DNA from: a virus
Direction: 5' to 3' (one strand)
Virus record (IMG/VR): IMGVR_UViG_3300034062_004313
Location: 1-64,000 of that record
DNA length: 64,000 bases
Under the pieces are notes generated by a model. The model did not search any database, was not told the DNA's origin, and worked only from the letters and a program-made list of their open reading frames with translations. This document shows positions 2,535 to 33,588 of this stretch, in pieces. Position 1 is the first letter of the stretch. Each line of letters begins with the position of its first letter. The position numbers and the translations under genes were made by a program.

Positions 2535-3080
2535 ATGGCAAAGAAGACCTATTTACACAGAGGGTTAACTGTAAAAAGAACCGATGAACAAGCAAGAGAA
2601 CAAAATCTATTTGATTTAGAAAGGTATTGGAAAGAAACTGCCAATAAACTTTTCGTTCCATTTTCAGATACTTGCGATGAAGCATGTCCTGTACCTGTAG
2701 GACAACCAGTTAGAGTATTAGCAGATGTGTTAGAAACATATGATGGTACAGAATGGGTAGATTTAAATTCAGTAGCAGATGCAGTAACAACAACTCAAGC
2801 AACTTCTAAAACTACAGCAGTAGTAGCAAATGGTGCTAAAGGAGTTATAACAACTGTAGCTTTAGATGATGCAGCAGGTGCATATTTTCAATTTACATTA
2901 ACAAATTCGAGTATTATACCTACATCAGTTATTCAATTAACTGGATTAAATTCTGGAACTGGTCAATTGGCAGTATCATTAGTATCAATTGGTACAGGAA
3001 GTGCTGTTATTAGAGTGGGCAATGCTGATAATTCTGAAGCTTTTAATAGTTTAGTAAAAATTCATTTTAATATATCATGA
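2535..3080 (+). CDS. Putative virion structural (fibre/decoration-like) protein
   Basis: C-terminal Thr/Ala/Val-rich beta domain (TQATSKTTAVVAN...FTLTNSSI) of a kind seen in phage structural proteins; late-module context. Confidence 0.5.
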   Translation: MAKKTYLHRGLTVKRTDEQAREQNLFDLERYWKETANKLFVPFSDTCDEACPVPVGQPVRVLADVLETYDGTEWVDLNSVADAVTTTQATSKTTAVVANGAKGVITTVALDDAAGAYFQFTLTNSSIIPTSVIQLTGLNSGTGQLAVSLVSIGTGSAVIRVGNADNSEAFNSLVKIHFNIS

Positions 3081-3217
3081 AACTAAGACAACTTAAAAAA
3101 GTAACAGTTAAAAATTCGTGTGGTGGACAGGGATGTGCTTACAAACCTTATTACGCACCAATGGGCATAAAAAGAATTGCTCTTGGAAATAAAAATTTGG
3201 TTAAGAAGATTGCATAA
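3077..3217 (+). CDS. Small basic protein (46 aa)
   Basis: MKLRQLKKVTVKNSCGGQGCAYKPYY...; ATGA overlap with the upstream stop; below the ORF-track cutoff. Confidence 0.55.
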   Translation: MKLRQLKKVTVKNSCGGQGCAYKPYYAPMGIKRIALGNKNLVKKIA

Positions 3218-3227
3218 CATATCTTTG
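3196..3227 (+). promoter_or_regulatory. Bacteroidota primary-sigma promoter
   Basis: Exact TTTG-N20-TATCTTTG (-33/-7 consensus TTTG / TAnnTTTG). Confidence 0.7.
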
Positions 3228-3246: not shown

Positions 3247-3438
3247 ATGAATGAACAATTAAAACAGTTTGACTTAGTACAGTTAAAAGCATTTGCGTAT
3301 GATGCTTCAGTAAATATGCAAGGATTACAGCAACAATTACAAATTCTAAATCAAGAAATTCAAACAAGATTAAAACTTGAATCTGAACAGAAACAAGTAA
3401 AAGAACCTGCTGAATTAACAATTGTAGAAGAAGATTAA
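3247..3438 (+). CDS. Small coiled-coil protein
   Basis: 63 aa, Q/L heptad-like pattern. Confidence 0.6.
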   Translation: MNEQLKQFDLVQLKAFAYDASVNMQGLQQQLQILNQEIQTRLKLESEQKQVKEPAELTIVEED

Positions 3439-3449
3439 AAAATAAAATA

Positions 3450-4253
3450 ATGTATATAGAGGCTGTTATAGTTTGTGTAAATTACTCTGATTTTTTAAGT
3501 CATACTTTGCCGACCAATAAGCATTTGTTCAACAAAGTGGTGGTGGTAACGGACACGAAAGACAATAATACAAAAAAGGTATGTGACTTACATAATGTAT
3601 TGTGCATACAAACTGATACAATATATACATCAGATAGCAAAATTCCAAACAAAGGAGTTGCAATTAATGCAGGATTAGAAGCCTTAGATAAAAAAGGATG
3701 GGTAGTACAGCTTGATGCTGATATTTATCTACCAACATTAACAAGAACTATTTTAGAAAGCTATCCACTGAATGTAAATTATCTTTATAGTATTGATAGA
3801 CTTATGTGTAATAGTTATGAAGATTGGTATAATTATATGCACCACAATAAAAAACCTGTCCATGAGGGTTGGATTTATCTGCATACTGATATTTTTTCAA
3901 TCGGCACAAGAATGGTGCAGTATCATGGTGACGGATATTGGCCTATTGGTTATTTTCAAATGTGGAATCCAAATCACACTTTAATTAACAGATATCCACA
4001 AGCAGAAGGTTATGATAGGAGCGATGTCCAGTTTTTAAAGCTATGGAAAAGAGCAGAAAGACATTTGATACCTGATTTACTTTGTATCCATCTGGCCAGT
4101 GATTCACACACAATGGGACAAAATTGGAAAGGTAGAAGTACCCCAATGTTTGCACCTGTAGTTGAACCCGGACGTTTTGAAATGTTTATCCAAAAAATAA
4201 AAATGTTTATGCGAAAAATATTTAAAAATAGAAAATTTAAAAAATGTTACTAA
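3450..4253 (+). CDS. Glycosyltransferase, GT-A fold (GT2-like)
   Basis: N-terminal VIVCVNY, NKGxAINAG, DxD motif VQLDADIY, GYFQ, late D motif; basic amphipathic C-terminus. Confidence 0.75.
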   Translation: MYIEAVIVCVNYSDFLSHTLPTNKHLFNKVVVVTDTKDNNTKKVCDLHNVLCIQTDTIYTSDSKIPNKGVAINAGLEALDKKGWVVQLDADIYLPTLTRTILESYPLNVNYLYSIDRLMCNSYEDWYNYMHHNKKPVHEGWIYLHTDIFSIGTRMVQYHGDGYWPIGYFQMWNPNHTLINRYPQAEGYDRSDVQFLKLWKRAERHLIPDLLCIHLASDSHTMGQNWKGRSTPMFAPVVEPGRFEMFIQKIKMFMRKIFKNRKFKKCY

Positions 4254-4347
4254 ATAATTTTTAGGTGCTTAGTGATATTTTTTTACATTTGATAAAATAT
4301 TTTTTGAAATGACATTTCCTGAAAAACAGTAATAACTCTTAAAAAGT

Positions 4348-4378
4348 AAAAGAAAGGATAGCAATGCTATCCTTTTTT
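4348..4378. terminator. Bidirectional intrinsic terminator between the convergent + and - modules
   Basis: AAAGGATAGC-AAT-GCTATCCTTT hairpin flanked by A and T tracts. Confidence 0.85.
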
Positions 4379-4379
4379 A

Positions 4380-4688
4380 TTATAGTAACTTCAACTCTTT
4401 ATAGATATAAGTTTCCTTCAATTGATTTATCATTTCCCAATTATCTAAATCCTTTTTATTATATCCTTTAGCAAATGCTAAACTTTCAGCTTTTTCTCTC
4501 CATGCTAAATATTCTTCTTCAGAATCTATAGTGTATACATTATAATAATACTCACTTCTATCTTTTCCCTTCTTATCCTTTATAGTTATTAATAAATCAG
4601 GAGACTCTTTTCTGATGTCCTGAATTGTTATGTTATGTCTTTTAAGAGCTAAGTTACTCAATTCATCTGAAAGTCTTGTATCAATCAT
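4380..4688 (-). CDS. Hypothetical protein
   Basis: Last ORF of the minus-strand unit before the terminator. Confidence 0.6.
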   Translation of the reverse strand: MIDTRLSDELSNLALKRHNITIQDIRKESPDLLITIKDKKGKDRSEYYYNVYTIDSEEEYLAWREKAESLAFAKGYNKKDLDNWEMINQLKETYIYKELKLL

Positions 4689-4739
4689 ACTCTATTTTTA
4701 TTTAATAGAGTCTTACGATACTGAATAAATCCTTTGAAG

Positions 4740-5072
4740 TTACCTGACTGATTTTTGCTGTCTGTAATTATTCTTGCGTTTATTTTCATAATACACTGTT
4801 TTTACAAGCCCATCTAACTGTATGATAAGTATCATATCTTCTTGAGAGCTATATTTGATTTTTATTTTTAATTTAATTCGTTTTTCTTCATTCTTCTCCC
4901 ACCAAACTACACTATTTTTAGTTAATTTTATGTTATTTGGTTTAACTTGTAAACACCCTTTACATCTTTCTTCAATTCTTAATAGTGCATGGGGTGAATA
5001 ATTTAATTGTATCCACTTACCTTTAAGGAAGTTTGGTAAATATGTTTGTTTCATACTACTTTCAATCCCCAC
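4740..5072 (-). CDS. Hypothetical protein, possible DUF4258/RelE-like RNase fold
   Basis: YSPHALLRIEER motif and C-terminal VKTVY. Confidence 0.35.
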   Translation of the reverse strand: MGIESSMKQTYLPNFLKGKWIQLNYSPHALLRIEERCKGCLQVKPNNIKLTKNSVVWWEKNEEKRIKLKIKIKYSSQEDMILIIQLDGLVKTVYYENKRKNNYRQQKSVR

Positions 5073-6561
5073 ATTAAATCAAACCAAGAAAATTCTTTTT
5101 CTGCTCCTTCTTTAGTTATTCTTAATGTTTTTTTTATTAATGGAATAGCCCATTTTTTAAATATTTCATACTCTTCTTGAGTCCATGTATAGTACATAAA
5201 CCATTCTATATCTCCTATTTTTTGATTTTCTTTAATATCATCATAATTAACTGCATGTTTCTCTAACATTTTATTAATTAGTTCTTTAACTAATTTCTCT
5301 TTTTTCTCCATAATCTTTAATTAATTTATCAAATTCTTCAATTGTTTTAGGGTAATGATGTGTTTGATTTAACCAAACGCTAAACCCATCACTATTCAAA
5401 TACAACGTTGGATAACCTTTAGATGTATAACTATATCCTTCATAGTAATTATAACTATAATTATACTTTTTTACAATCTTATCAAATTCTGTCATATATC
5501 TAACATTTTACTTAATAAATCAAACTCTTCTTTTGTTTTACAATCAAATTTAAAAGGATGTGTCCAACTATCATAATCTCCTAATGTATGATTATCTCCT
5601 ACATGATAATATCTAATTTCTAACGGAGAAAAGTAAGTACCACTTTTAAAATAACTAATAAACCACTTTCTTTTATTCTTATCTGTTTTAAAGAAACTAT
5701 AAGCTCTTCCATTAGGAGAAGGGCTTTCTTCAATCCAACCTTTTACAAATAAAAAATATCTATGGTCTAAATCATATTTACTCTGGTCTTTTGACAAATC
5801 CTGCATTCCATTTTCTTCCTGTAAGTCTTTCATATTGTTCTTTATAGTATCTAAATTTAATTACATCTTCTTCTGTAGTAGCAAAATAACTACTTGCCGC
5901 CCATGTACACAACATATAATAAGGAATAGAATCTTCTGCCCATATTATATGGTCTGAATATAATCTAAGGCTTTTAAAAACATACTCTTCTGAAACTTGT
6001 CCCTTTTCTAATATTTCATTATTATAATCCATTTCTTTTTGATTATAAATATAAATTTGCCAATGAGTACGTAATTCAGTAAATTTTTTAAAATACACTT
6101 GAGTATTCTCAAACTTAATCCACCCTTGTTCTTTTAAATATCTTTCAAATTTATTTAATTCTATCATATACTCTCTTTTTATCTGTGGCAGGAAGATATT
6201 TCCTACGTAATTTTTCACAATCTTCAATTAATCCATTCATGTAATCTTTCCATTTTTGAGAAGGTTTACCACGTTTATTAGCTTGTTCTTCAAAACCCTG
6301 TTCTATCTTATCAAAGTAATCCGTTACATAGATAGATGAAAAGGGGAGAATTTCTTCATCCCCTTCCAAATCTTCATTATACAATTTCAATTTTTTCATG
6401 TTTACAAATATCATGTCTATAAAAAGACATAATTGTTTTATCGTACCTATATTTTATAAGATTATAAACTTCTCCTTTTTTAATAGATTTGTTACATACA
6501 GCACATTCTCTATTTCTTAGACTCTTTGGAGATTTTTCATACATTATATTCTTAATCATAA

Positions 6562-6999
6562 TTAATTTGTTGAACCAAATCCTCCAGTTCCTCTATCAGA
6601 TTCAGATAATTCTTCTACTTCTTCAAATTCAATAGGTGGATATGGTAGAATAATAATTTGCCCTATTCTTTCTCCTACTTCATAAGGTTTTTTATATTCT
6701 TTATTAGAAGGAGCAACCATAGAAGGTTTGAATTTAAAAAATACTTCTCCTCTGTAGCTCGAATCCAGAACACCAACACTATTGCTTAATATCAAACTTT
6801 TTTTACAATTACTACTTCTTGGAAAGAGAAGTCCTACAAACCCTTTTGGGATTTCAAATGCTAACCCTACCCCATAAGAATAATTTCCATCATCATCCAT
6901 TTTAATACTTGTAGCAGTTAAATCCATTCCAGCATCTCCTTCTTTAGCATAAGATGGTAAAACACTATTCGGAAATAATTTCTTTATTTTCACTTTCAT
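6562..6999 (-). CDS. dut: dUTPase (trimeric)
   Basis: [24 protein letters not shown] and RGTGGFGST motifs. Confidence 0.97.
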
Positions 7000-8101
7000 C
7001 TTCTAATATTAATTCGTTAACTAATTCATTTGTTAATTCTACTTCTACTACTTGCTCTAATAATTTTTCATCTATGGTAGGATTTAAAACTTCCAAGGTT
7101 TTTATTTTAATTTCTTCAAATAATTCTGGATTATCTGCAAGTAATTGCATTACAGAATCAATACCTTGTCCTATTTTATTCTCTTCATAGGAAAACCAAG
7201 AACCTGACTTTTTAACTACATTATTATCAACAGCCAAATTAATAAGTTCATCAAATTTATCAATTCCTGTTCCGAATACTAAATTAAATTCAGCTTGTCT
7301 GAATGGTGGAGCCACTTTATTCTTAATAACTTTAACTCTAACTTTATTTGATACAGCTTCTTCTCCATCTTTATTAGTTGTCACCTTTCTAATATCCATT
7401 CTAACAGATGCAAAAAACTTCAAAGCATTTCCACCAGAAGTTGTTTCTGGATTTCCAAACATTACACCAATCTTTTCACGAATTTGATTTGTGAATATTA
7501 CTAATGTATTAGATTTTTCAACATCGGCAGTGAGTATTCTCATGGCTTGAGACATCATTCTTGCTTGTTTACTCACTCCTACATCACCAATCTCACCTTC
7601 AAGTTCTGATTTTGGAACTAATGCTGCTACACTATCTATAACCACTACATCAAAATCACCACTTTTAATAAGTTGTCTTGCTATCTCAAGAGCTTGTTCA
7701 CCATAATCAGGTTGTGATATTTCAAGCCTATTTAAATCAACTCCCATAGATTGCATATATCCCAAATCTAAAGCATGTTCTGCATCTACAAAAGCACAAT
7801 AAGAATTGCTATCTAAAGCATGAGCTTGTGCTATAACAGATTGACATATGGTAGTTTTACCACTTGATTCTGGACCATATATTTCTACAATACGACCCTT
7901 TGGTAATCCACCAATTCCAAGAGCTTTATCTAATCCAATAGAACCTGTTGATATAGATGCTATAATCATAGGTTTATCAGTTGCTCCTATAAGGGTTCCT
8001 TTTCCAAAATCTTTTTCCATTCGAAGCTTTAAAGCTTCAATTCGTTTAGCTTTTGTATCAGCTAATACTGTATTTTCTTCTGTCTTTTTTGGTCTTGCCA
8101 T
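6965..8101 (-). CDS. recA: RecA recombinase
   Basis: [46 protein letters not shown]. Confidence 0.98.
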
Positions 8102-8120
8102 ATTTTAATTTTTCTTTTCA

Positions 8121-8151
8121 CAAATTTACAAAATAAAATCCATCTCCCAAA
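8121..8151 (-). promoter_or_regulatory. Bacteroidota-type promoter for recA-dut
   Basis: Minus strand TTTG-N19-TAAATTTG, overlapping the upstream terminator hairpin. Confidence 0.65.
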
Positions 8152-10784: not shown

Positions 10785-10814
10785 TAAAAAGAAGGGAGAC
10801 GTTTCCCTTCTTTT
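10785..10814 (-). terminator. Terminator-like hairpin in the nrdJ leader
   Basis: AAAAGAAGGGA/TCCCTTCTTTT stem plus U tract. Confidence 0.55.
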
Positions 10815-10820
10815 GGAGTA

Positions 10821-10851
10821 ACAATATAAATCATTTTTTATGACTTACAAA
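10821..10851 (-). promoter_or_regulatory. Putative promoter, TTTG-N19-TATATTGT
   Basis: Same motif precedes both intron endonuclease genes. Confidence 0.55.
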
Positions 10852-12382: not shown

Positions 12383-14203
12383 ATTAAATCTTTTAGTGAA
12401 TAAATTCTACGATACCCTACTTCATAACGTTGATTATGTGGAGCATCAAATAAAAATGTACATATTCCTGCATTATTAAGTTCTACAAAGTTTTCATATC
12501 TCTATGTGTTACCACAAAGGTTTTTTATCCTTTGTTTCTACAGTTTTATATATAGCTGTAGTCCAGACTATCTCTTCGTCCTATTTTTAGGCGTTCCCCC
12601 GCTTTCTTGGTAGATTTTATTGTCCGTTCTGGACTCACTACTAGTCGTTAGGCATTTATGAATATTCCTATTCAATTTAGCACGGGATTGTCCTTTTCAC
12701 TAAGGAGTTTCCCCGTTTAACGGAGTTTAACGATGACAGATTGTGTAATTTATATGTCATACATTTTGGAAAAAATTCTTTTATTAATTTGGTAAAAATT
12801 TTTTTACTTCTAGCTGCAATTAGTATTTCATTTTCAGAGTTAAAACTACATTCAATATTAAATGTTAATAACCAGTTTTTTAAAACTATTAAATCTTTTA
12901 TGTCAAAACAATTAGTAGAAATTTTATAAGAATATTGAGTTTTAGAACCATCATCCATAAACCAAATAGCTAAAGCTAAAGGAGATAATTTATCTAAGTA
13001 TTCTTTTGATACTACTTTTTTATTATTAACATAAAATTTATTTACAATATCGTTTAGCACTGGATTAGTTCCAATTTTACAAAAATATTGTTGATAAAAT
13101 CTGTTACTTCTTTTATCAATTTTATTATGTATTGTAGGTTTAGAACATAATCTTTTTAATAAATTATATTTATAATCTACATATTCTGAATGTTCTAATT
13201 TATGTGTAAAAGAACCACAAGCATTTTTACCTTTTTTAGTATAACCTAACCAGCTATCACCAAGTAAACCCCCAATTAAAACATCTAACTCAGTTTGAGT
13301 TAAAGTTAATTTAGAAGGTCTGTATTTAATATAAATATCGTCAGGTAGTTCAATTTTTCTTATTGTTCTTTGAATAACTTGTGTATTTACATTAAATATT
13401 TTAGCAATATCTGAAGAAGATTTACCTTCTCTTAATAATTCTATTATTTTTTCTTTATCGTATTTCATATAGATATGTTTGTAGTACAATATACTACAAA
13501 AATATCAAATTATCAAATTTATTTTATCATCTACAAACCATTCTATACCACTTTGTTTAGCAACTTCCACCTTTGATTCTCCAAATCCTACACAATACAC
13601 AGGCATAGTAGGAAAACCATTTTTATCTAACCACTCTTTTGTCCATTCTATAGGAATACTTCTTGAAGTTATATAACAGTGAGGTTCGAAGTTTATATCA
13701 GAAGGTTTAGTTTTAACAGGAATACTTAACCAAAACTCTTTATCATCTTTCAATAAATCAAATTTAGATTTAATATCTCTATCAAAATTCCAAGTTTCAG
13801 GAACTTCCAATCTATGATGTTTAGTCCAATGTCCTACCCAATCTGCCAATACTTCATCAATATCTAATCCTATCTTAGGTCTATTTAGATAATTATGTGG
13901 TCTATCATCTCCTTGTGGATATAATTTATAATAAGCTGTAAGAAAGTGTACATTGCAAGCTAAATGAGCAGCATGAAGTTCTCCTGTTTCTTTATCATAA
14001 TCTTCTCCATTTTCAATAGCAGCCAAATGTCTCTTTAGACTACTTATAATCTTGCTCCATGCCATTCCCTTCTCCCAATTCCTCTCGGAATATTTAATAG
14101 CACCCTTAGTTAATACACTAACCATTTGTTCATGTGCAAATGGATTTACTAAATCGTAGCGTAATTTTCCTTCATTGTAGCGTAATCCTTGTTCTTTACT
14201 CAT
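12379..14203 (-). CDS. Spliced DUF5664 (dATP/dGTP diphosphohydrolase-like) + HAD 5'(3')-nucleotidase fusion, join(13526..14203,12379..12501), 266 aa
   Basis: N-terminal GLRYNEGKLRYDL...GAIKYSERNWEKG...ETGELHAAH; HAD motif I LDIDEVL; splicing restores WFVDD|RYENFVELNNAGICTFLFDAPHNQ. Confidence 0.85.
12677..13468 (-). CDS. Intron-encoded LAGLIDADG homing endonuclease with N-terminal HTH
   Basis: LIGGLLGDS and LAIWFMDDG motifs. Likely start is ATG 13468 (the track uses TTG 13489). The 3' end runs into the intron core. Confidence 0.88.
   Translation of the reverse strand: MKYDKEKIIELLREGKSSSDIAKIFNVNTQVIQRTIRKIELPDDIYIKYRPSKLTLTQTELDVLIGGLLGDSWLGYTKKGKNACGSFTHKLEHSEYVDYKYNLLKRLCSKPTIHNKIDKRSNRFYQQYFCKIGTNPVLNDIVNKFYVNNKKVVSKEYLDKLSPLALAIWFMDDGSKTQYSYKISTNCFDIKDLIVLKNWLLTFNIECSFNSENEILIAARSKKIFTKLIKEFFPKCMTYKLHNLSSLNSVKRGNSLVKRTIPC
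13486..13517 (-). promoter_or_regulatory. Intron-internal promoter for the endonuclease gene
   Basis: TTTG-N20-TATATTGT just inside the 5' splice site. Confidence 0.6.
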
Positions 14204-28708: not shown

Positions 28709-30969
28709 TTACATTTCAAATTCTTCTAATAAAATTACTTCTTCTAATCTTTTTTCACTGGGTATATTAAACACACTATTACAACTCATACATATAGATT
28801 CATAAGAATCTCCTTGAGTTAAATTTGTACTATTACAACAAGGACATTCATTTATATCTAAACAATCTTGAATATATTCATCATCATCATTAGTAAATGT
28901 AAATTGTTCACAATAATGCCAAGAGTTATATTCTTTTTTAGAAGGAACATCAGATTGAAAATACCAATCATCTATATCATAATTTGATTTGCTCCATTTT
29001 TTATATTGAACATATTCATTCTCGGCTTTATGTTCCCATCTTTTATGAGATAGACTTTCTACTAATTCAAATGCATAATTAACAGCATTTTCAAATTCAG
29101 GAACTATTATTACTTCTTCAGCATAATGTTCATTTATATAGCCTATACTGTAATTAAAAGCACAACAATCTGCTCCTCTTTTAGATAGTTCTCCAACCTT
29201 TTTGTTCAAAATGAGTCGTTAATTCATTCCCGTAAATTAATACAGCTCATAATTTCTTATGAGAACAGACTATATCATCTTCCTAATATTTAGGAAGCTT
29301 TCTATTTTGAATCACTTGATTCTACTCCGCACAACCAGATAGTCGTTGAACCTTCATCCTTTCACTAGGATGCTTGGCTGCTGATTGCCCAATCCTTGTT
29401 TCTTTTACTATACTATAGTCATTGCTGCTACAGAGAGTGTACAAGGCTCTAAGGGGTTTCCAGTCAATTAAGAAAGTACAAAATAAATATTGCTATTTAT
29501 TTGGACATTTGACAAAAATACCTTATATTGTGTATATAAAATATAAATTATGGTTAATAAATTAAATAATTCTGATATTCCTACTCTTATTGAAATGTAC
29601 AATAAAAAAGAAAAAACTGCTACAATTGCTAAGTATTTTAATGTAACAGGTGCTACAATACATAACTATTTAAAAAATAATGTCAATAACTTTGAACCAA
29701 CTTTTTCAAGAAGAAAATATTCAATAAATGATAATTACTTTGAAAAAATAGATACAGAAGATAAAGCTTATTTTTTAGGTCTTTTGTATGCAGATGGAAA
29801 TGTTTATCTTAAAACAAATAGAATAAAATTATCTTTAGTTGAAAAAGATAAAGATATACTAGAAAAATTTAAAAAATTAATAGAAAGTAATAACCCTATT
29901 ACATATTATAATAGAACTAATAAAAATGAAAATTGGCAAAATGTTTATGAATTTGCATTTACATCTAAAAAAGTAACTAATGATTTAATTAAATTAGGTT
30001 GTATTCCTAGAAAAACATATTTTCTTAAATTTCCAACAGAAGAACAAGTTCCAAGCCATCTTATTCATCATTTCATTCGTGGATATTTTGATGGAGATGG
30101 ATGTGTTCTAATTACTAAGAAATATAAAAATTTAAATATCAGATTTGATGGAACTATTGAGTTCCTTAGTTCTTTACAACAATATATCTCTACAAAATTA
30201 AATTTACCAATAAATAAACTTGGTAAAAGACATAAAGATAGAGTAGATAATATTTATAATCTCTCTTATGGAGGAAATATTCTTTGTAAAAAACTATTTA
30301 ATTTATTTTATAATAACGCTAATTTATATTTAGATAGAAAATATAAAATATTTAAGTCAATTTATCTGTAAACATACAACATTGATAAGCATATCCATAT
30401 TTTTTATTAATGTGTTTTGTTGCTTTTTTAAAATTTTCTGAAACTGTGATTACACCATTTGTTGATTCACTAATATCTCTTTTATATGAATTTCTATCTC
30501 CTTGTATAAGGAAAGAACAATCTTTAAAAAATTGTATATCAGCATTTTTAGAACCTATTGCTCCCACTTCTTCTGATTTAGCAAAAAAACATTTAATATT
30601 ATCAAATTTCTGTAGAGCTAAAAGATTTAACATACAACCTAATTTATCATCTGCTCCTAATCCACATTGTATCATAGCTGTATTATCCATTCCAAATATA
30701 TAATCCTTATTCCAAATAATACTAAAATCTTTAATTTCATCTTGATTTATATCAACATGGGCTACAAAACATGGATATATTTCAGCTTCTCCCTTAGTTA
30801 CATATAAATTACCAAACTTATCCTTCTCAAATGATACACTTTTTATATTGTCAAATATCCAACTCTGAAGAAAGTTTATCATAACATCTTCTTCTTTTGT
30901 TTGAGAATGACTTCTAATTTCTAATAGTTTGTGTAATAACCTGTATTGTTCTTTATCAAATTTATACAT
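28709..30969 (-). CDS. Spliced M28/M20-like Zn peptidase with C-terminal Zn ribbon, join(30364..30969,28709..29197), 364 aa
   Basis: AHVD, GADDKLG, SEEVG, QGDR; splicing restores MFTD|VGELSKRG...NYSIGYINEH; C-terminal CPCC...CMSC. Confidence 0.85.
29198..30363 (-). ncRNA. Group I self-splicing intron 2 (1166 nt) with antisense endonuclease gene in L1
   Basis: 5' exon ends in U, terminal G. P1 is GAU|AAAUUGAC with GUCAAAUGUC (29513-29504). P2 has a GCAA tetraloop (29481-29502). Core P AAUUGACUGGAAAC, Q AAUCAGCAGCC, R GUUCAACGACUA, S AUGAUAUAGUCU. Confidence 0.93.
29500..29531 (+). promoter_or_regulatory. Promoter for the antisense endonuclease gene
   Basis: TTTG-N20-TATATTGT ending 18 nt before ATG 29550. 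Confidence 0.6.
29550..30371 (+). CDS. LAGLIDADG homing endonuclease with N-terminal HTH, antisense to its intron
   Basis: AYFLGLLYADG and HFIRGYFDGDG motifs; the only convincing + strand gene in the 60 kb minus-strand region. Confidence 0.9.
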   Translation: MVNKLNNSDIPTLIEMYNKKEKTATIAKYFNVTGATIHNYLKNNVNNFEPTFSRRKYSINDNYFEKIDTEDKAYFLGLLYADGNVYLKTNRIKLSLVEKDKDILEKFKKLIESNNPITYYNRTNKNENWQNVYEFAFTSKKVTNDLIKLGCIPRKTYFLKFPTEEQVPSHLIHHFIRGYFDGDGCVLITKKYKNLNIRFDGTIEFLSSLQQYISTKLNLPINKLGKRHKDRVDNIYNLSYGGNILCKKLFNLFYNNANLYLDRKYKIFKSIYL

Positions 30970-32272
30970 GTTCTAATAATTTATAAGTGCTTGTTTCTTC
31001 ATCGTATTCTAATTCTTTTTCTTTTATCCAATCATCTTCTTCTTCTACGTAAATAAAATTATCATCCCCCCTAATAAAATATACATCATGATATTCTGAT
31101 TTTAATAAATTACTGTCATCTTGATAAGCATAATCACCATCATATAACTCTATTGCATTATCACAATGACAATGTATTCCATTATATAAACAAATTACAT
31201 CATTTTCATGACATATTCCATCATGATAAGTATCTTCACTATCATTTCGCAATATAATATCTCCATTATAATCTGTCACCCAACATCTTTCACAAACATA
31301 TTCTTCTTGTCTTCTACCCCTTGTTATTCTATTAAAATCATCATCGGAATCATGGTTTGAATCACAACAATCACAATAATAAGAATCTTCTTCATTATTT
31401 ACTAATGAACCATCCGTTTCCTGTAAATTTTCTTCTCCTCTATTAGATATGTAATGTCCATCTAAACAACAAAGTGTATCAGCATAAGGATAATAATCTA
31501 AATCATGTTGTCCATACTGTAGTTTTATAGTTATATCTCTTGAAATAAAGGGTTTAATTATATTTTTATTAGAAATGTTTATATATCCAAGCTTTTCTAA
31601 ACAATTCTGCATTGACATGTTAATTTCATTATTAACAGCATATATTCTATCATAATAAGTAGTTTCACTATCAGGATGCCATAATATACAACGAGATTTC
31701 ACTCTTTCTGAATCTGTAAGAATAACAGCTAAACTAACTTGTTTTTCATTTAAAGAATATATATCTAAATAATCTTGACAACTTTCATAACGCATACAAC
31801 TAGCAAAAATATCAGAATTATTTCCATCTGATTGTTTACCATAATTTGAATAATTATCTTCTAAGTAATATTTCTTAATATCATCTCCTTTAACTATACA
31901 AACAATAGATGTGTCTATACACTCATAACACTGTTTATTTTGGAAAGTATATAATTGTACAAAACGTTCTAACATCTTATCAGGAATAAGTGGAATAAGT
32001 TTTTTAATTACTTTACCTGCTGTAGACATTATTCTTTTATCTGGATTCCAGCAATCTGAATAATTTAAAGTTTCTATCTTTTTTTTATCAAGAAAACTTA
32101 TCATATTATGATTATCTCTTGCTATACCAAAATAATTTCTATAATCTTTATGTTCTTCATCTAAATTTAACTCAAATATTTTTAAAAATTCTTCTTTAAA
32201 TTCTTCTTTTTCTGAATCTAATACAGAACATATTCTATGTCTTAATTCATCTGAAATTGTAATATATATCAT
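30962..32272 (-). CDS. Conserved phage protein (SCM / DRIY / PYxDT family) with C-terminal Cys/His-rich repeats
   Basis: ASCMRY, RCILW, YYDRIY, YPYADT followed by CxxC repeats; coupled to the peptidase gene. Confidence 0.6.
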   Translation of the reverse strand: MIYITISDELRHRICSVLDSEKEEFKEEFLKIFELNLDEEHKDYRNYFGIARDNHNMISFLDKKKIETLNYSDCWNPDKRIMSTAGKVIKKLIPLIPDKMLERFVQLYTFQNKQCYECIDTSIVCIVKGDDIKKYYLEDNYSNYGKQSDGNNSDIFASCMRYESCQDYLDIYSLNEKQVSLAVILTDSERVKSRCILWHPDSETTYYDRIYAVNNEINMSMQNCLEKLGYINISNKNIIKPFISRDITIKLQYGQHDLDYYPYADTLCCLDGHYISNRGEENLQETDGSLVNNEEDSYYCDCCDSNHDSDDDFNRITRGRRQEEYVCERCWVTDYNGDIILRNDSEDTYHDGICHENDVICLYNGIHCHCDNAIELYDGDYAYQDDSNLLKSEYHDVYFIRGDDNFIYVEEEDDWIKEKELEYDEETSTYKLLEHV

Positions 32273-33588
32273 TCGAATAGTTTTCCTTGTTTTTTATTTT
32301 GAAAATTTAATTGTTCTCCATCCATAAGCATAATTTCATCCTTAACTATAGATAAATGCACCAATGCACTAAATACTTGTTCATATAAAAGAGAAGACGG
32401 GATAGCTTTCCCGTCTAAGTCTTCTTCAAGTTCTTTCTTATATGCTTTTAATGCTGGTTCTGCTTTCTTTATTAATATTCTTAAACTTTGTTCTACTTCT
32501 TTTTTTAATTTCATATTAAATCTTTTATATCAAATCCATCTGTAAAATATTCTACACCGCTATATTTACCAGAAGCTGTAATAATAAAATCACCATCTTT
32601 ATAAAACCTTATGATATTATATACTATCTGGTCTTCTGGTTCAAGAAATAGATTTTTATTTTCTTTATACCATTCTTCATCAAGGAATGCCCAATCAAAA
32701 TCTCCTTCTATAAAGTCTTGTAATTCTTCTTCTACATCAAAAAATTCTACACCAAAGTTTGCAAAATATTCTAGAGAAAAGAAATCATCTTTAATATTAT
32801 CTATTGTTTCTTTACATCTAAGAAGAAAATCTTTATTAACATAGAATATACAAACATCTATATTTAAAAATTCATCATTATTAAATGCTTTTGCTATTAC
32901 TATTCCTGTGTTTTCTTTACTAAATTTCATTTATTTTTAAATTTTTAACAATTATTTCATTCTCAAATGCATATGGAATTATACTCGTTATCTTCCATAT
33001 TTTCATCAAACTCTTTTTTAAGTTTTAAGTATTGTTCATATCTCTCTTTCTTACTTTCTTCTCTTTTATTTTTCCAGAATAGTTCTCTTTCTTCTATTTC
33101 TTCTGGAGTTTCTTCTATATCTCTATATACTGCTATAAAAGTATTTTCATTATCATCAAATCTATTAGGATGCTCTACTACAATATAATCAGTTGATAGT
33201 AAATCTACTTCAAATTTAGACACTCGAATTTTATCATAATGTCCATCTAACTCTTTTTCAAAAATGCACTTGTTAATAATCATATTTATTCTTTCTTTTA
33301 AACCAACTCATGATTCGTATTTAGTTTGTATTATTCTTGAATCTTGTATAATTCTATCTTTTGGGCTTGCACAAGCTTTTAAAAGAACATGAGAGTCTTC
33401 ATTATGCATATGTAATCCTATCCACCACATTTTTCCTTGAAATTCTCTAAGTCTTATCCATTTGTACATGTAATAATGTTTTCTACCTCTACCTTGTTCA
33501 TTTACTCCTTTAAAGTGATAAATTTGTAGTAGGTCATATTCTTTTATTTCTCTTCCTTTTCCATCAAAATAAGGTGCTTCTATTTCCA

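Follow-up and report, generated by a model that had tools for sequence, protein, structure and literature searches.

Group I introns in which ribozyme and homing endonuclease gene are on opposite strands have been described in nuclear ribosomal DNA, where Dir.S956-2 of Didymium iridis, with I-DirII, and Dsq.L2066 of D. squamulosum, with I-DsqI, carry antisense genes of the His-Cys box family (PMC9548176, PMC3073962). Descriptions of phage and bacterial introns place the nuclease gene on the same strand as the intron; the opposite orientation goes unmentioned both in a review of bacterial introns (PMC3984707) and in a database paper of 2025 (PMC11835236), and in the literature we found no paper that describes an antisense endonuclease gene in a phage or bacterial intron. 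The locus considered here offers a clean and fully delimited inverted example. It lies within the first 64 kb (hereafter, the window) of IMG/VR virus record IMGVR_UViG_3300034062_004313, a phage genome of 155,874 bp that is rated complete, and it consists of a 1,166-nt group I intron that interrupts a metallopeptidase gene on the minus strand and carries, on the plus strand, a gene for a LAGLIDADG homing endonuclease. At the level of sequence, this layout was confirmed as real and unusual, and its particular twist is that the endonuclease open reading frame (ORF) crosses the 5′ splice site of its own intron. The explanation we favor, and consider likely, is that of a mobile group I intron, probably of IA type, inserted in the conserved catalytic region of the peptidase gene and carrying an inverted, self-contained, and self-promoted LAGLIDADG cassette in the loop of its P1 helix.

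The ribozyme was found in an Rfam scan of positions 28900-30800, where the group I model RF00028 matched full-length (model positions 1-253) on the minus strand at 29521..29246, with 80.4 bits against a gathering threshold of 50 bits and an E value of 2e-20. Scans of the 64-kb window at both gathering and E-value thresholds missed this 80-bit intron, apparently an effect of speed filters that tighten as the scanned sequence grows longer, and whole-window negatives are unreliable for AT-rich introns with large insertions. A genome-wide search recovered the same intron and no second one in the genome. Its catalytic core, P3 to P9, occupies 29246..29480 on the minus strand in the RF00028 alignment and includes a 33-nt insert between P7 and P3′, which suggests the P7.1/P7.2 of an IA-type intron; part of this insert (GUAGAAUCAAGUGAUUC) is shared with a related intron on another contig, L007, that is taken up below. 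Beyond the end of the Rfam match comes a 3′ tail after P9, 48 nt long (29198..29245, minus strand), with one or two small hairpins and the ending ...AAAAAG.

The splice sites were delimited from the exons. Exon 1 of the peptidase (30364..30969, minus strand) has 202 codons, ends in ...CCMFTD, and is homologous, with 65% identity, to intron-less peptidases of 354-359 aa; exon 2 (28709..29197, minus strand), earlier called as a separate ORF of 166 aa, has 162 codons plus the stop and begins VGELSKRGADCC.... Joining U30364 to G29197 gives a 364-aa protein that is gap-free at TD/VG (slashes mark splice or insertion sites) against three more distant intron-less homologues, the junction MFTD/VGELSKRG aligning with GMTDVYQLCLNG, LMTDILTLKEKG, and GQTDIVELKEMG. 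Since this is the only length-preserving pair of sites with a U at -1 and a G before exon 2, the intron is placed at 30363..29198, with the 5′ splice site after U30364, a terminal G at 29198, and exon 2 opening on GUU GGA; the predicted ligated-exon sequence is ...UUUACAGAU/GUUGGAGAA.... Placing the 3′ splice site at G29246, where the Rfam match ends, was ruled out, as it gives ...TD-LY-stop and loses the 162 homologous codons of exon 2. The proteins 65% identical to exon 1, of 354 and 359 aa, are uninterrupted, and, with gene order conserved, their genes have a 431-aa gene on one side and the rIIA-like gene on the other; at the insertion site these intron-less alleles read ...TATACAGAT/ATCGG... 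and ...TATACAGAT/ATAGG..., or YTD/IG in protein. Without splicing, the exon-1 frame reads through three intron codons before it meets a UAA at 30354-30352. The frames of both exons are open and retain the conserved metal-site motifs. Collectively, these comparisons show the intron, its predicted splice sites, and the restored peptidase. The host gene itself is a predicted metallopeptidase of the MH clan, M42/M20-like; its intron-less relatives give weak M42, M20, and M28 matches, and the homologue in Cellulophaga phage phi38:1 carries a peptidase annotation.

Gene callers do not see it this way and report three separate genes at the locus, of 205, 273, and 166 aa. Such output would be expected if there were no single intron at all, that is, if a free-standing inverted nuclease gene lay between two fragments with an incidental ribozyme-like stretch, or if the peptidase were a pseudogene. 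We regard this as highly improbable, given that the RF00028 match is full-length, that the terminal G falls exactly at the start of exon 2 homology, that both exons are open and retain their metal-site motifs, and that the U.G wobble at the splice site sits inside a significant long-range helix.

That helix is an extended P1. Its 5′ strand (30340..30366, minus strand) is made up of GAU/A (30366-30363), UUGAC (30360-30356), and the 14-nt AAAUAUUUUAUAUU (30353-30340); the 3′ strand, which includes the internal guide sequence (29504..29529, minus strand), is made up of UGUC (29507-29504), GUCAA (29513-29509), and AAUAUAAGGUAUUU (29529-29516). At the base of the helix, G30366-C29504 and an A-U pair are followed by the U30364.G29506 wobble at the splice site, by A30363-U29507, and then by a small internal loop; the upper part comprises the UUGAC/GUCAA pairing, a UU/UU loop, and a 14-bp run of 30353-30340 with 29529-29516. 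The whole is a nested, interrupted helix of 23 bp (4+5+14 bp) closing an 810-nt loop (30339..29530), and its duplex energy of -18.7 kcal/mol was matched by none of 1000 shuffled pairs (mean, -5.7) and by none of 660 natural windows, each of 34 nt, taken from this DNA. The plus-strand equivalent reaches only -11.8 kcal/mol, because the G.U pairs turn into A-C mismatches there; the helix, being stronger on the minus strand, therefore belongs to the intron RNA. P2 (29481..29502, minus strand) is a 9-bp hairpin with a GCAA tetraloop, seen in the Rfam alignment, in the fold, and on reading the sequence. A possible P10 pairs exon 2 GUUGGA with 29507-29512 at 5 of 6 positions. An alternative P1, GAUAAA/UUUGUC with G29513 as the wobble partner, was dropped; it competes with the UUGAC/GUCAA helix and leaves a poorer P10.

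The P1 loop is filled by an ORF on the opposite strand. The gene, at 29550..30371 on the plus strand, encodes a LAGLIDADG homing endonuclease of 273 aa, which matches PF14528 in two stretches (46 bits against a cut-off of 22.5) and phrog_4645 over residues 11-271 of 273 (4.7e-68). Two LAGLIDADG motifs, GLLYADGN and GYFDGDGC, each have the catalytic acidic residue, as in single-chain enzymes of this family, and align with the motifs of the enzyme in a related locus, L034 (see below); the N terminus has a weak helix-turn-helix match. Database relatives number 4,525, thousands of them at 40-52% identity, and a search of solved structures gave no match at E <= 0.01. No long minus-strand frame lies opposite the gene, the longest one across it having 65 codons.

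Where the ORF ends is the crux of the layout. Since the family match reaches the extreme C terminus, the 3′ end is not an accidental extension, and the P1 5′ strand has its complement in the final ten codons, KYKIFKSIYL. A TAT codon spans the splice site, and CTG TAA follows inside exon 1; with the 5′ splice site at 30364/30363, the stop (TAA, 30369-30371) thus lies 6-8 nt inside exon 1. In all, the last 32 nt of the ORF, 30340-30371, are complementary to the whole P1 5′ strand, to the splice site, and to 8 nt of exon 1. With the stop beyond the splice site, an endonuclease message of full length cannot avoid being antisense to both that site and the P1 5′ strand. The initial annotation had put the LAGLIDADG gene opposite its intron, with a stop codon beyond the 5′ splice site at 30363/30364 and inside exon 1. 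Both statements stand: the RF00028 core is on the minus strand and 29550-30371 is on the plus strand, and the splice site is set by collinearity with the intron-less homologues. The exon-borne stop looks incidental nonetheless, because the TAA is the complement of UUA across the exon-1 Phe-Thr codons UUU ACA, and the intron-less alleles L035 and L037 have UAU ACA (Tyr) there, which would yield no stop.

The genomic setting is one of nearly uniform gene orientation. Minus-strand genes run nearly throughout 4380-80666, a 76-kb block in a genome of 27.6% G+C whose products include ribonucleotide reductase, DNA polymerase, a UvsX-like recombinase, the rIIA-like protein, a helicase, and an RNA ligase. 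Only two genes inside this block are on the plus strand, one being the endonuclease gene, which is also the only long plus-strand ORF of the block within the window, and the other a gene at 75344-75949. The product of the latter has a T5orf172/MUG113 domain, is GIY-YIG-like, and gives a weak match to a homing-endonuclease PHROG; ahead of the gene stands a perfect TTTG-N20-TATATTTG whose end is 18 nt from the ATG. The gene has the look of another inverted nuclease cassette with a promoter of its own. Both plus-strand exceptions in 76 kb would therefore be nuclease cassettes with promoter-like elements of their own.

Among relatives of the endonuclease, the inverted orientation was not encountered. 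At 17 of 17 related loci the gene is co-oriented with its upstream neighbours, in 16 cases on both sides and in one at a strand switch, and in those with a detectable group I core (six LAGLIDADG-carrying introns) core and nuclease gene are on the same strand. The closest homologue with genomic context (P0003; 52% identity) sits among co-oriented genes with no detectable intron. The survey of related loci thus gave no inverted case, and the antisense layout with its intron was not found outside one near-clonal population; the relatives at 65-68% identity are intron-less or have a different intron. A precedent offered in the initial annotation, antisense HNH genes in the DNA polymerase introns of T7-like phages, could not be substantiated; in Xanthomonas phage phiL7, the HNH gene is co-oriented with the polymerase exons.

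The different intron just mentioned is that of L034, a Logan contig (SRR2107179) whose peptidase exon 1 is 68% identical to that of the window. Here, the locus spans 4001-6814 and a group I intron of 97.3 bits, with its core at 5574-5803, is inserted 17 codons (51 nt) downstream, after ...CCAINFS, exon 2 resuming from about 6403. Between the 5′ splice site and the core, and overlapping the 5′ part of the latter, lies a sense-strand gene (4727-5671) for a 314-aa LAGLIDADG protein of phrog_4645, 33% identical to that of the window; a second sense-strand gene, for a 166-aa endonuclease VII-like protein (5829-6329), follows the core. The arrangement may represent one intron with two genes or a nested pair. 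Since this intron occupies another site, the peptidase region has received introns on two or more occasions; the element in the window alone is inverted. A further IA-type relative, of 79.6 bits, interrupts a metallophosphatase gene in L007 (2504-4517) and L008 (IMG/VR 3300029749_000055 and 3300029745_000005); in L007 it carries a sense LAGLIDADG gene, 40% identical to that of the window, broken into two frames (2848-3219 and 3253-3672), and the L008 contig has three further group I matches.

For the endonuclease gene, the initial annotation had proposed a promoter built into the DNA of the P1 3′ strand and the edge of P2. The placement is accurate, in that 29500-29531 coincides with the P1 3′ strand (29504-29529) and reaches into P2 (29502-29481). 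As to the promoter itself, what stands is a candidate of Bacteroidota type on the plus strand at 29500..29531 (TTTGGACATTTGACAAAAATACCTTATATTGT), with a -33 element TTTG(GA) at 29500-29505 and N20 between TTTG and a -7 element, TATATTGT, at 29524-29531; the element ends 19 nt before the ATG, and similar ones lie 18-20 nt before three other genes. What limits the proposal is that its likeness to the consensus holds with one mismatch, in the -7 box. Bacteroidota promoters, as Bayley et al. reportedly found in 2000, have the form TTTG-N19-21-TAnnTTTG, a consensus that may not be the host's. On the opposite strand, the -33 box corresponds to the P1/P2 junction and the -7 box to the P1 extension.

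The choice of consensus accords with other features of the genome. A Shine-Dalgarno-like motif precedes only 4 of 63 genes. Scarcity of such motifs is typical of Bacteroidota and their phages; hence, these counts, together with further promoter-like elements, suggest a Bacteroidota-like host. Elements of the form TTTG-N19-21-TAnnTT[TG][GT] occur on the minus strand at 8091-8121, 20 nt upstream of the UvsX-like gene; at 13455-13486, 18 nt upstream of a 270-aa ORF; and at 10791-10821, 48 nt upstream of the ribonucleotide reductase gene. The strict consensus has 14 matches in the genome, 7 of them intergenic, where intergenic DNA makes up 11.8% of the genome. Among them are matches ahead of the first gene of the rightward block and, at 107.9-108.8 kb in that block, within gene-free stretches of 280-500 nt; others end 20 nt from the start of the UvsX-like gene and 18 nt from that of the other plus-strand gene in the leftward block. 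With one mismatch allowed, 11 of 38 matches are intergenic, and 4 of these 11 (that of the endonuclease and three others) end 18-20 nt before a start codon, where we estimate from the counts that about 0.3 such placements would be expected by chance among 200 genes. An endonuclease promoter at 29500-29531 is accordingly best described as plausible but unproven. Two other routes to a promoter were abandoned. A sigma-70 reading, with TTGACA at 29509-29514, was discarded as evidence, as sites of this type are at chance level (39, against 36.5 +/- 5.5 expected) and the genes mostly lack Shine-Dalgarno motifs; and word enrichment for a phage-specific promoter returned only the low-information words TTATTTG and ACGAAA at varying distances, which were unused except as a lead to the -33/-7 scan.

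These figures bear on the less eventful possibility that the inverted gene has no dedicated promoter and is essentially unexpressed, a silent relic whose promoter match is a product of chance in AT-rich DNA and which is intact only since its insertion or inversion was recent, with decay ahead of it. The chance-level count of sigma-70-type sites is in keeping with such a state, as are the mismatch in the -7 box and the lack of enrichment of TAnnTTTG alone (120 against 112). On the other hand, the spacing of 18-20 nt to the ATG is common to three other matches, among them that of the only other inverted nuclease gene in the block, and would arise by chance about 0.3 times by the estimate given above. 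On balance, we find a silent relic doubtful.

The population data speak to the same question. The phage has been found repeatedly in lake and freshwater metagenomes between 2016 and 2024 (13 runs), no RNA run being listed with this DNA, and an identical exon 1 with the adjoining inverted gene is present in 17 contigs from several sources, the pieces examined being 99.8-100% identical to the window. One near-identical contig (GCA_043537325.1 / JGI 3300049595, 28,456 bp; L031, also L041) has a single difference in a stretch of 8,535 bp, C29600A (L031:3817), and this changes endonuclease codon 17 from TAC to TAA, the gene caller there reporting a 195-aa remnant. A selfish nuclease gene whose intron has become fixed is expected to decay in this way. 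The nonsense allele would also suit an unexpressed relic, and so would the near-clonality of the population, which leaves little time for selection to show; the 273-codon frame is nevertheless open in most metagenome copies, which argues the other way. Run X9 provides a hint of movement. In the flanks (the rIIA-like gene and both exons), its contigs are 86-94% identical to the window, a divergence of 6-14%, and its intron/endonuclease contigs, of similar depth, differ by 0 or 1 base and have their ends, 29191 and 30361, at the splice sites. The pattern suggests recent homing into a diverged genome. Mapping the reads of four DNA runs gave short, low-depth contigs and, in the stretches covered, no joint that skips the intron or the endonuclease gene, and exact-word scans for the ligated-exon junction and the intron 5′ end had no matches in viral and metagenome contigs, from which records of the window's own genome may be absent.

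The mobile, self-promoted cassette that we favor would work as follows. The endonuclease would be transcribed from its own host-type promoter at 29500-29531, translated from a short leader without a Shine-Dalgarno motif, and would cut the intron-less peptidase alleles of co-infecting phages near ...TACAGAT/RTNGG..., whereupon the intron would be copied in. Through its inversion, the nuclease may be uncoupled from the 76-kb early/replication block, where leftward transcription is strong; the inversion may also leave the P1 loop ribosome-free, because translation of exon 1 would end three codons past the splice site. The stop in exon 1 would be a by-product of packing, the frame crossing the P1 stem and ending at the first stop beyond it, which UUU ACA happens to supply. 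More speculatively, recombination could have produced the inversion: in the DNA, the two strands of the P1 extension are inverted repeats, identical at 12 of 14 positions, and an exchange between them would flip the loop and keep the stem intact; an ORF that reaches into the stem would stay open to the first stop beyond it, here in exon 1. Antisense pairing with the pre-mRNA would then be an unavoidable side effect and not a demonstrated control circuit. Several points weigh against this explanation. The X9 pattern could instead reflect a two-strain mixture assembled into short contigs, and an intron-less allele of the same lineage was not found, either in the contigs of the four runs or in the ligated-junction word scans. 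The promoter is a low-information match in DNA of 27.6% G+C, with a mismatched -7 box, and the one-mismatch pattern, with 38 matches, compares with 29.9 +/- 4.5 in Markov simulations. Nor was there a sister intron with the same gene in the sense orientation to back an origin by recombination in the stem.

The initial annotation had gone further and raised the possibility of a splicing switch, in which the endonuclease mRNA pairs with the pre-mRNA, blocks P1 or triggers cleavage of the duplex, and lowers the amount of spliced peptidase mRNA. The geometry is suggestive, since it forces complementarity, the ORF running through the entire P1 5′ strand and across the splice site to end 8 nt inside exon 1, and a plausible promoter stands ahead of the gene. 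A transcript starting near 29537 would lack the complement of the guide sequence and include those of the P1 loop, the P1 5′ strand, and the splice site. The remark that no terminator is evident was also sound: past the endonuclease stop, the plus strand has no terminator-like site before 32395, which again favors a switch. At 32395-32416, within the minus-strand ORF 32269-32514, there is a G+C-rich 8-bp hairpin (AGACGGGA...TCCCGTCT) that is terminator-like on both strands, and clear G+C-rich terminators are present elsewhere in the genome. Antisense RNA left untranslated past the stop would be a natural substrate for Rho. Precedents of a kind exist as well: antisense RNA has reportedly been linked to an intron/endonuclease locus in cyanophage S-PM2 (Millard 2010, cited in PMC3428280), and interference by antisense transcription has been raised as a concern for the nuclear antisense endonuclease genes (PMC9548176).

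Much else argues against a switch. The layout is not conserved, all 17 related loci having the gene co-oriented with its upstream neighbours, and the homologous peptidase genes either have no intron or have the different one, inserted 51 nt downstream, whose nuclease genes are on the sense strand. Nonsense at codon 17 is tolerated in the sister genome. P1 is an intramolecular 23-bp helix able to form during transcription, the antisense RNA would need to be abundant relative to the early-block transcript, and less peptidase has no apparent benefit for either phage or intron. We therefore consider a splicing switch improbable. Much the same applies to the wider notion of a working antisense module, in which the mRNA from the embedded promoter would mask the P1 5′ strand and 5′ splice site, provoke duplex cleavage, or collide with leftward RNA polymerase, such that splicing and peptidase output depend on nuclease expression; to this, too, we would assign little probability. 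If true, it would be a natural example, from a phage, of a group I ribozyme under antisense control.

A single stretch of DNA serves here as ribozyme helix, promoter-like element, and coding sequence, and the locus is a natural substrate for asking whether antisense transcription affects self-splicing and how cassettes enter, and perhaps flip in, intron loops. There is a practical lesson too: gene callers, and pipelines that look for ORFs on the intron strand, will overlook nucleases of this kind and wrongly label each exon as a gene in its own right.

Several known systems come close to the element. The L034 intron shares the host gene and the region within it, is likewise group I, and has a phrog_4645 LAGLIDADG gene between the 5′ splice site and the core; it differs in its site, 17 codons downstream, in the sense orientation of that gene and its overlap with the core, and in the extra endonuclease VII-like gene. 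In cyanophage S-PM2, Millard et al. reportedly described in 2010 a psbA intron, an antisense RNA named CfrI, and a free-standing endonuclease, F-CphI, and proposed that the antisense RNA influences the expression of both. There, as here, an antisense transcript would connect a group I intron gene with a homing endonuclease gene, but in S-PM2 the antisense transcript is a short non-coding RNA and the co-oriented endonuclease gene lies elsewhere than in the intron, whereas in the window it is the endonuclease mRNA itself that would cover the 5′ splice site. The nuclear introns Dir.S956-2 and Dsq.L2066 resemble the window in having an endonuclease gene opposite the ribozyme, in a peripheral loop, with its own internal promoter (expressed or presumed; a candidate in the window) and an acknowledged risk of interference. 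Those are eukaryotic introns of type IE or IC1 in ribosomal RNA genes, however, with His-Cys box enzymes, RNA polymerase II promoters, spliceosomal introns, and polyadenylated messages; moreover, the insertion in Dsq.L2066 is in P9.2, and that of the window is in the P1 loop, is a LAGLIDADG gene, and extends its ORF across the 5′ splice site. Judged by its LAGLIDADG enzyme, its location in a phage protein gene, and its prokaryotic context, the predicted element of the window is not a member of the nuclear antisense His-Cys family. With the classical phage introns (T4 td/I-TevI and nrdB/I-TevIII, SPO1 I-HmuI, and phiL7 gp45; PMC2988022, PMC3428280) it has in common a probable IA type, an insertion in a conserved active-site region, putative expression signals of its own, and a presumed homing life cycle in which eventual decay of the nuclease is expected. 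In those introns, as checked in phiL7 and in the six related LAGLIDADG introns, the ORF is on the intron strand; in the window it is inverted and overlaps exon 1.

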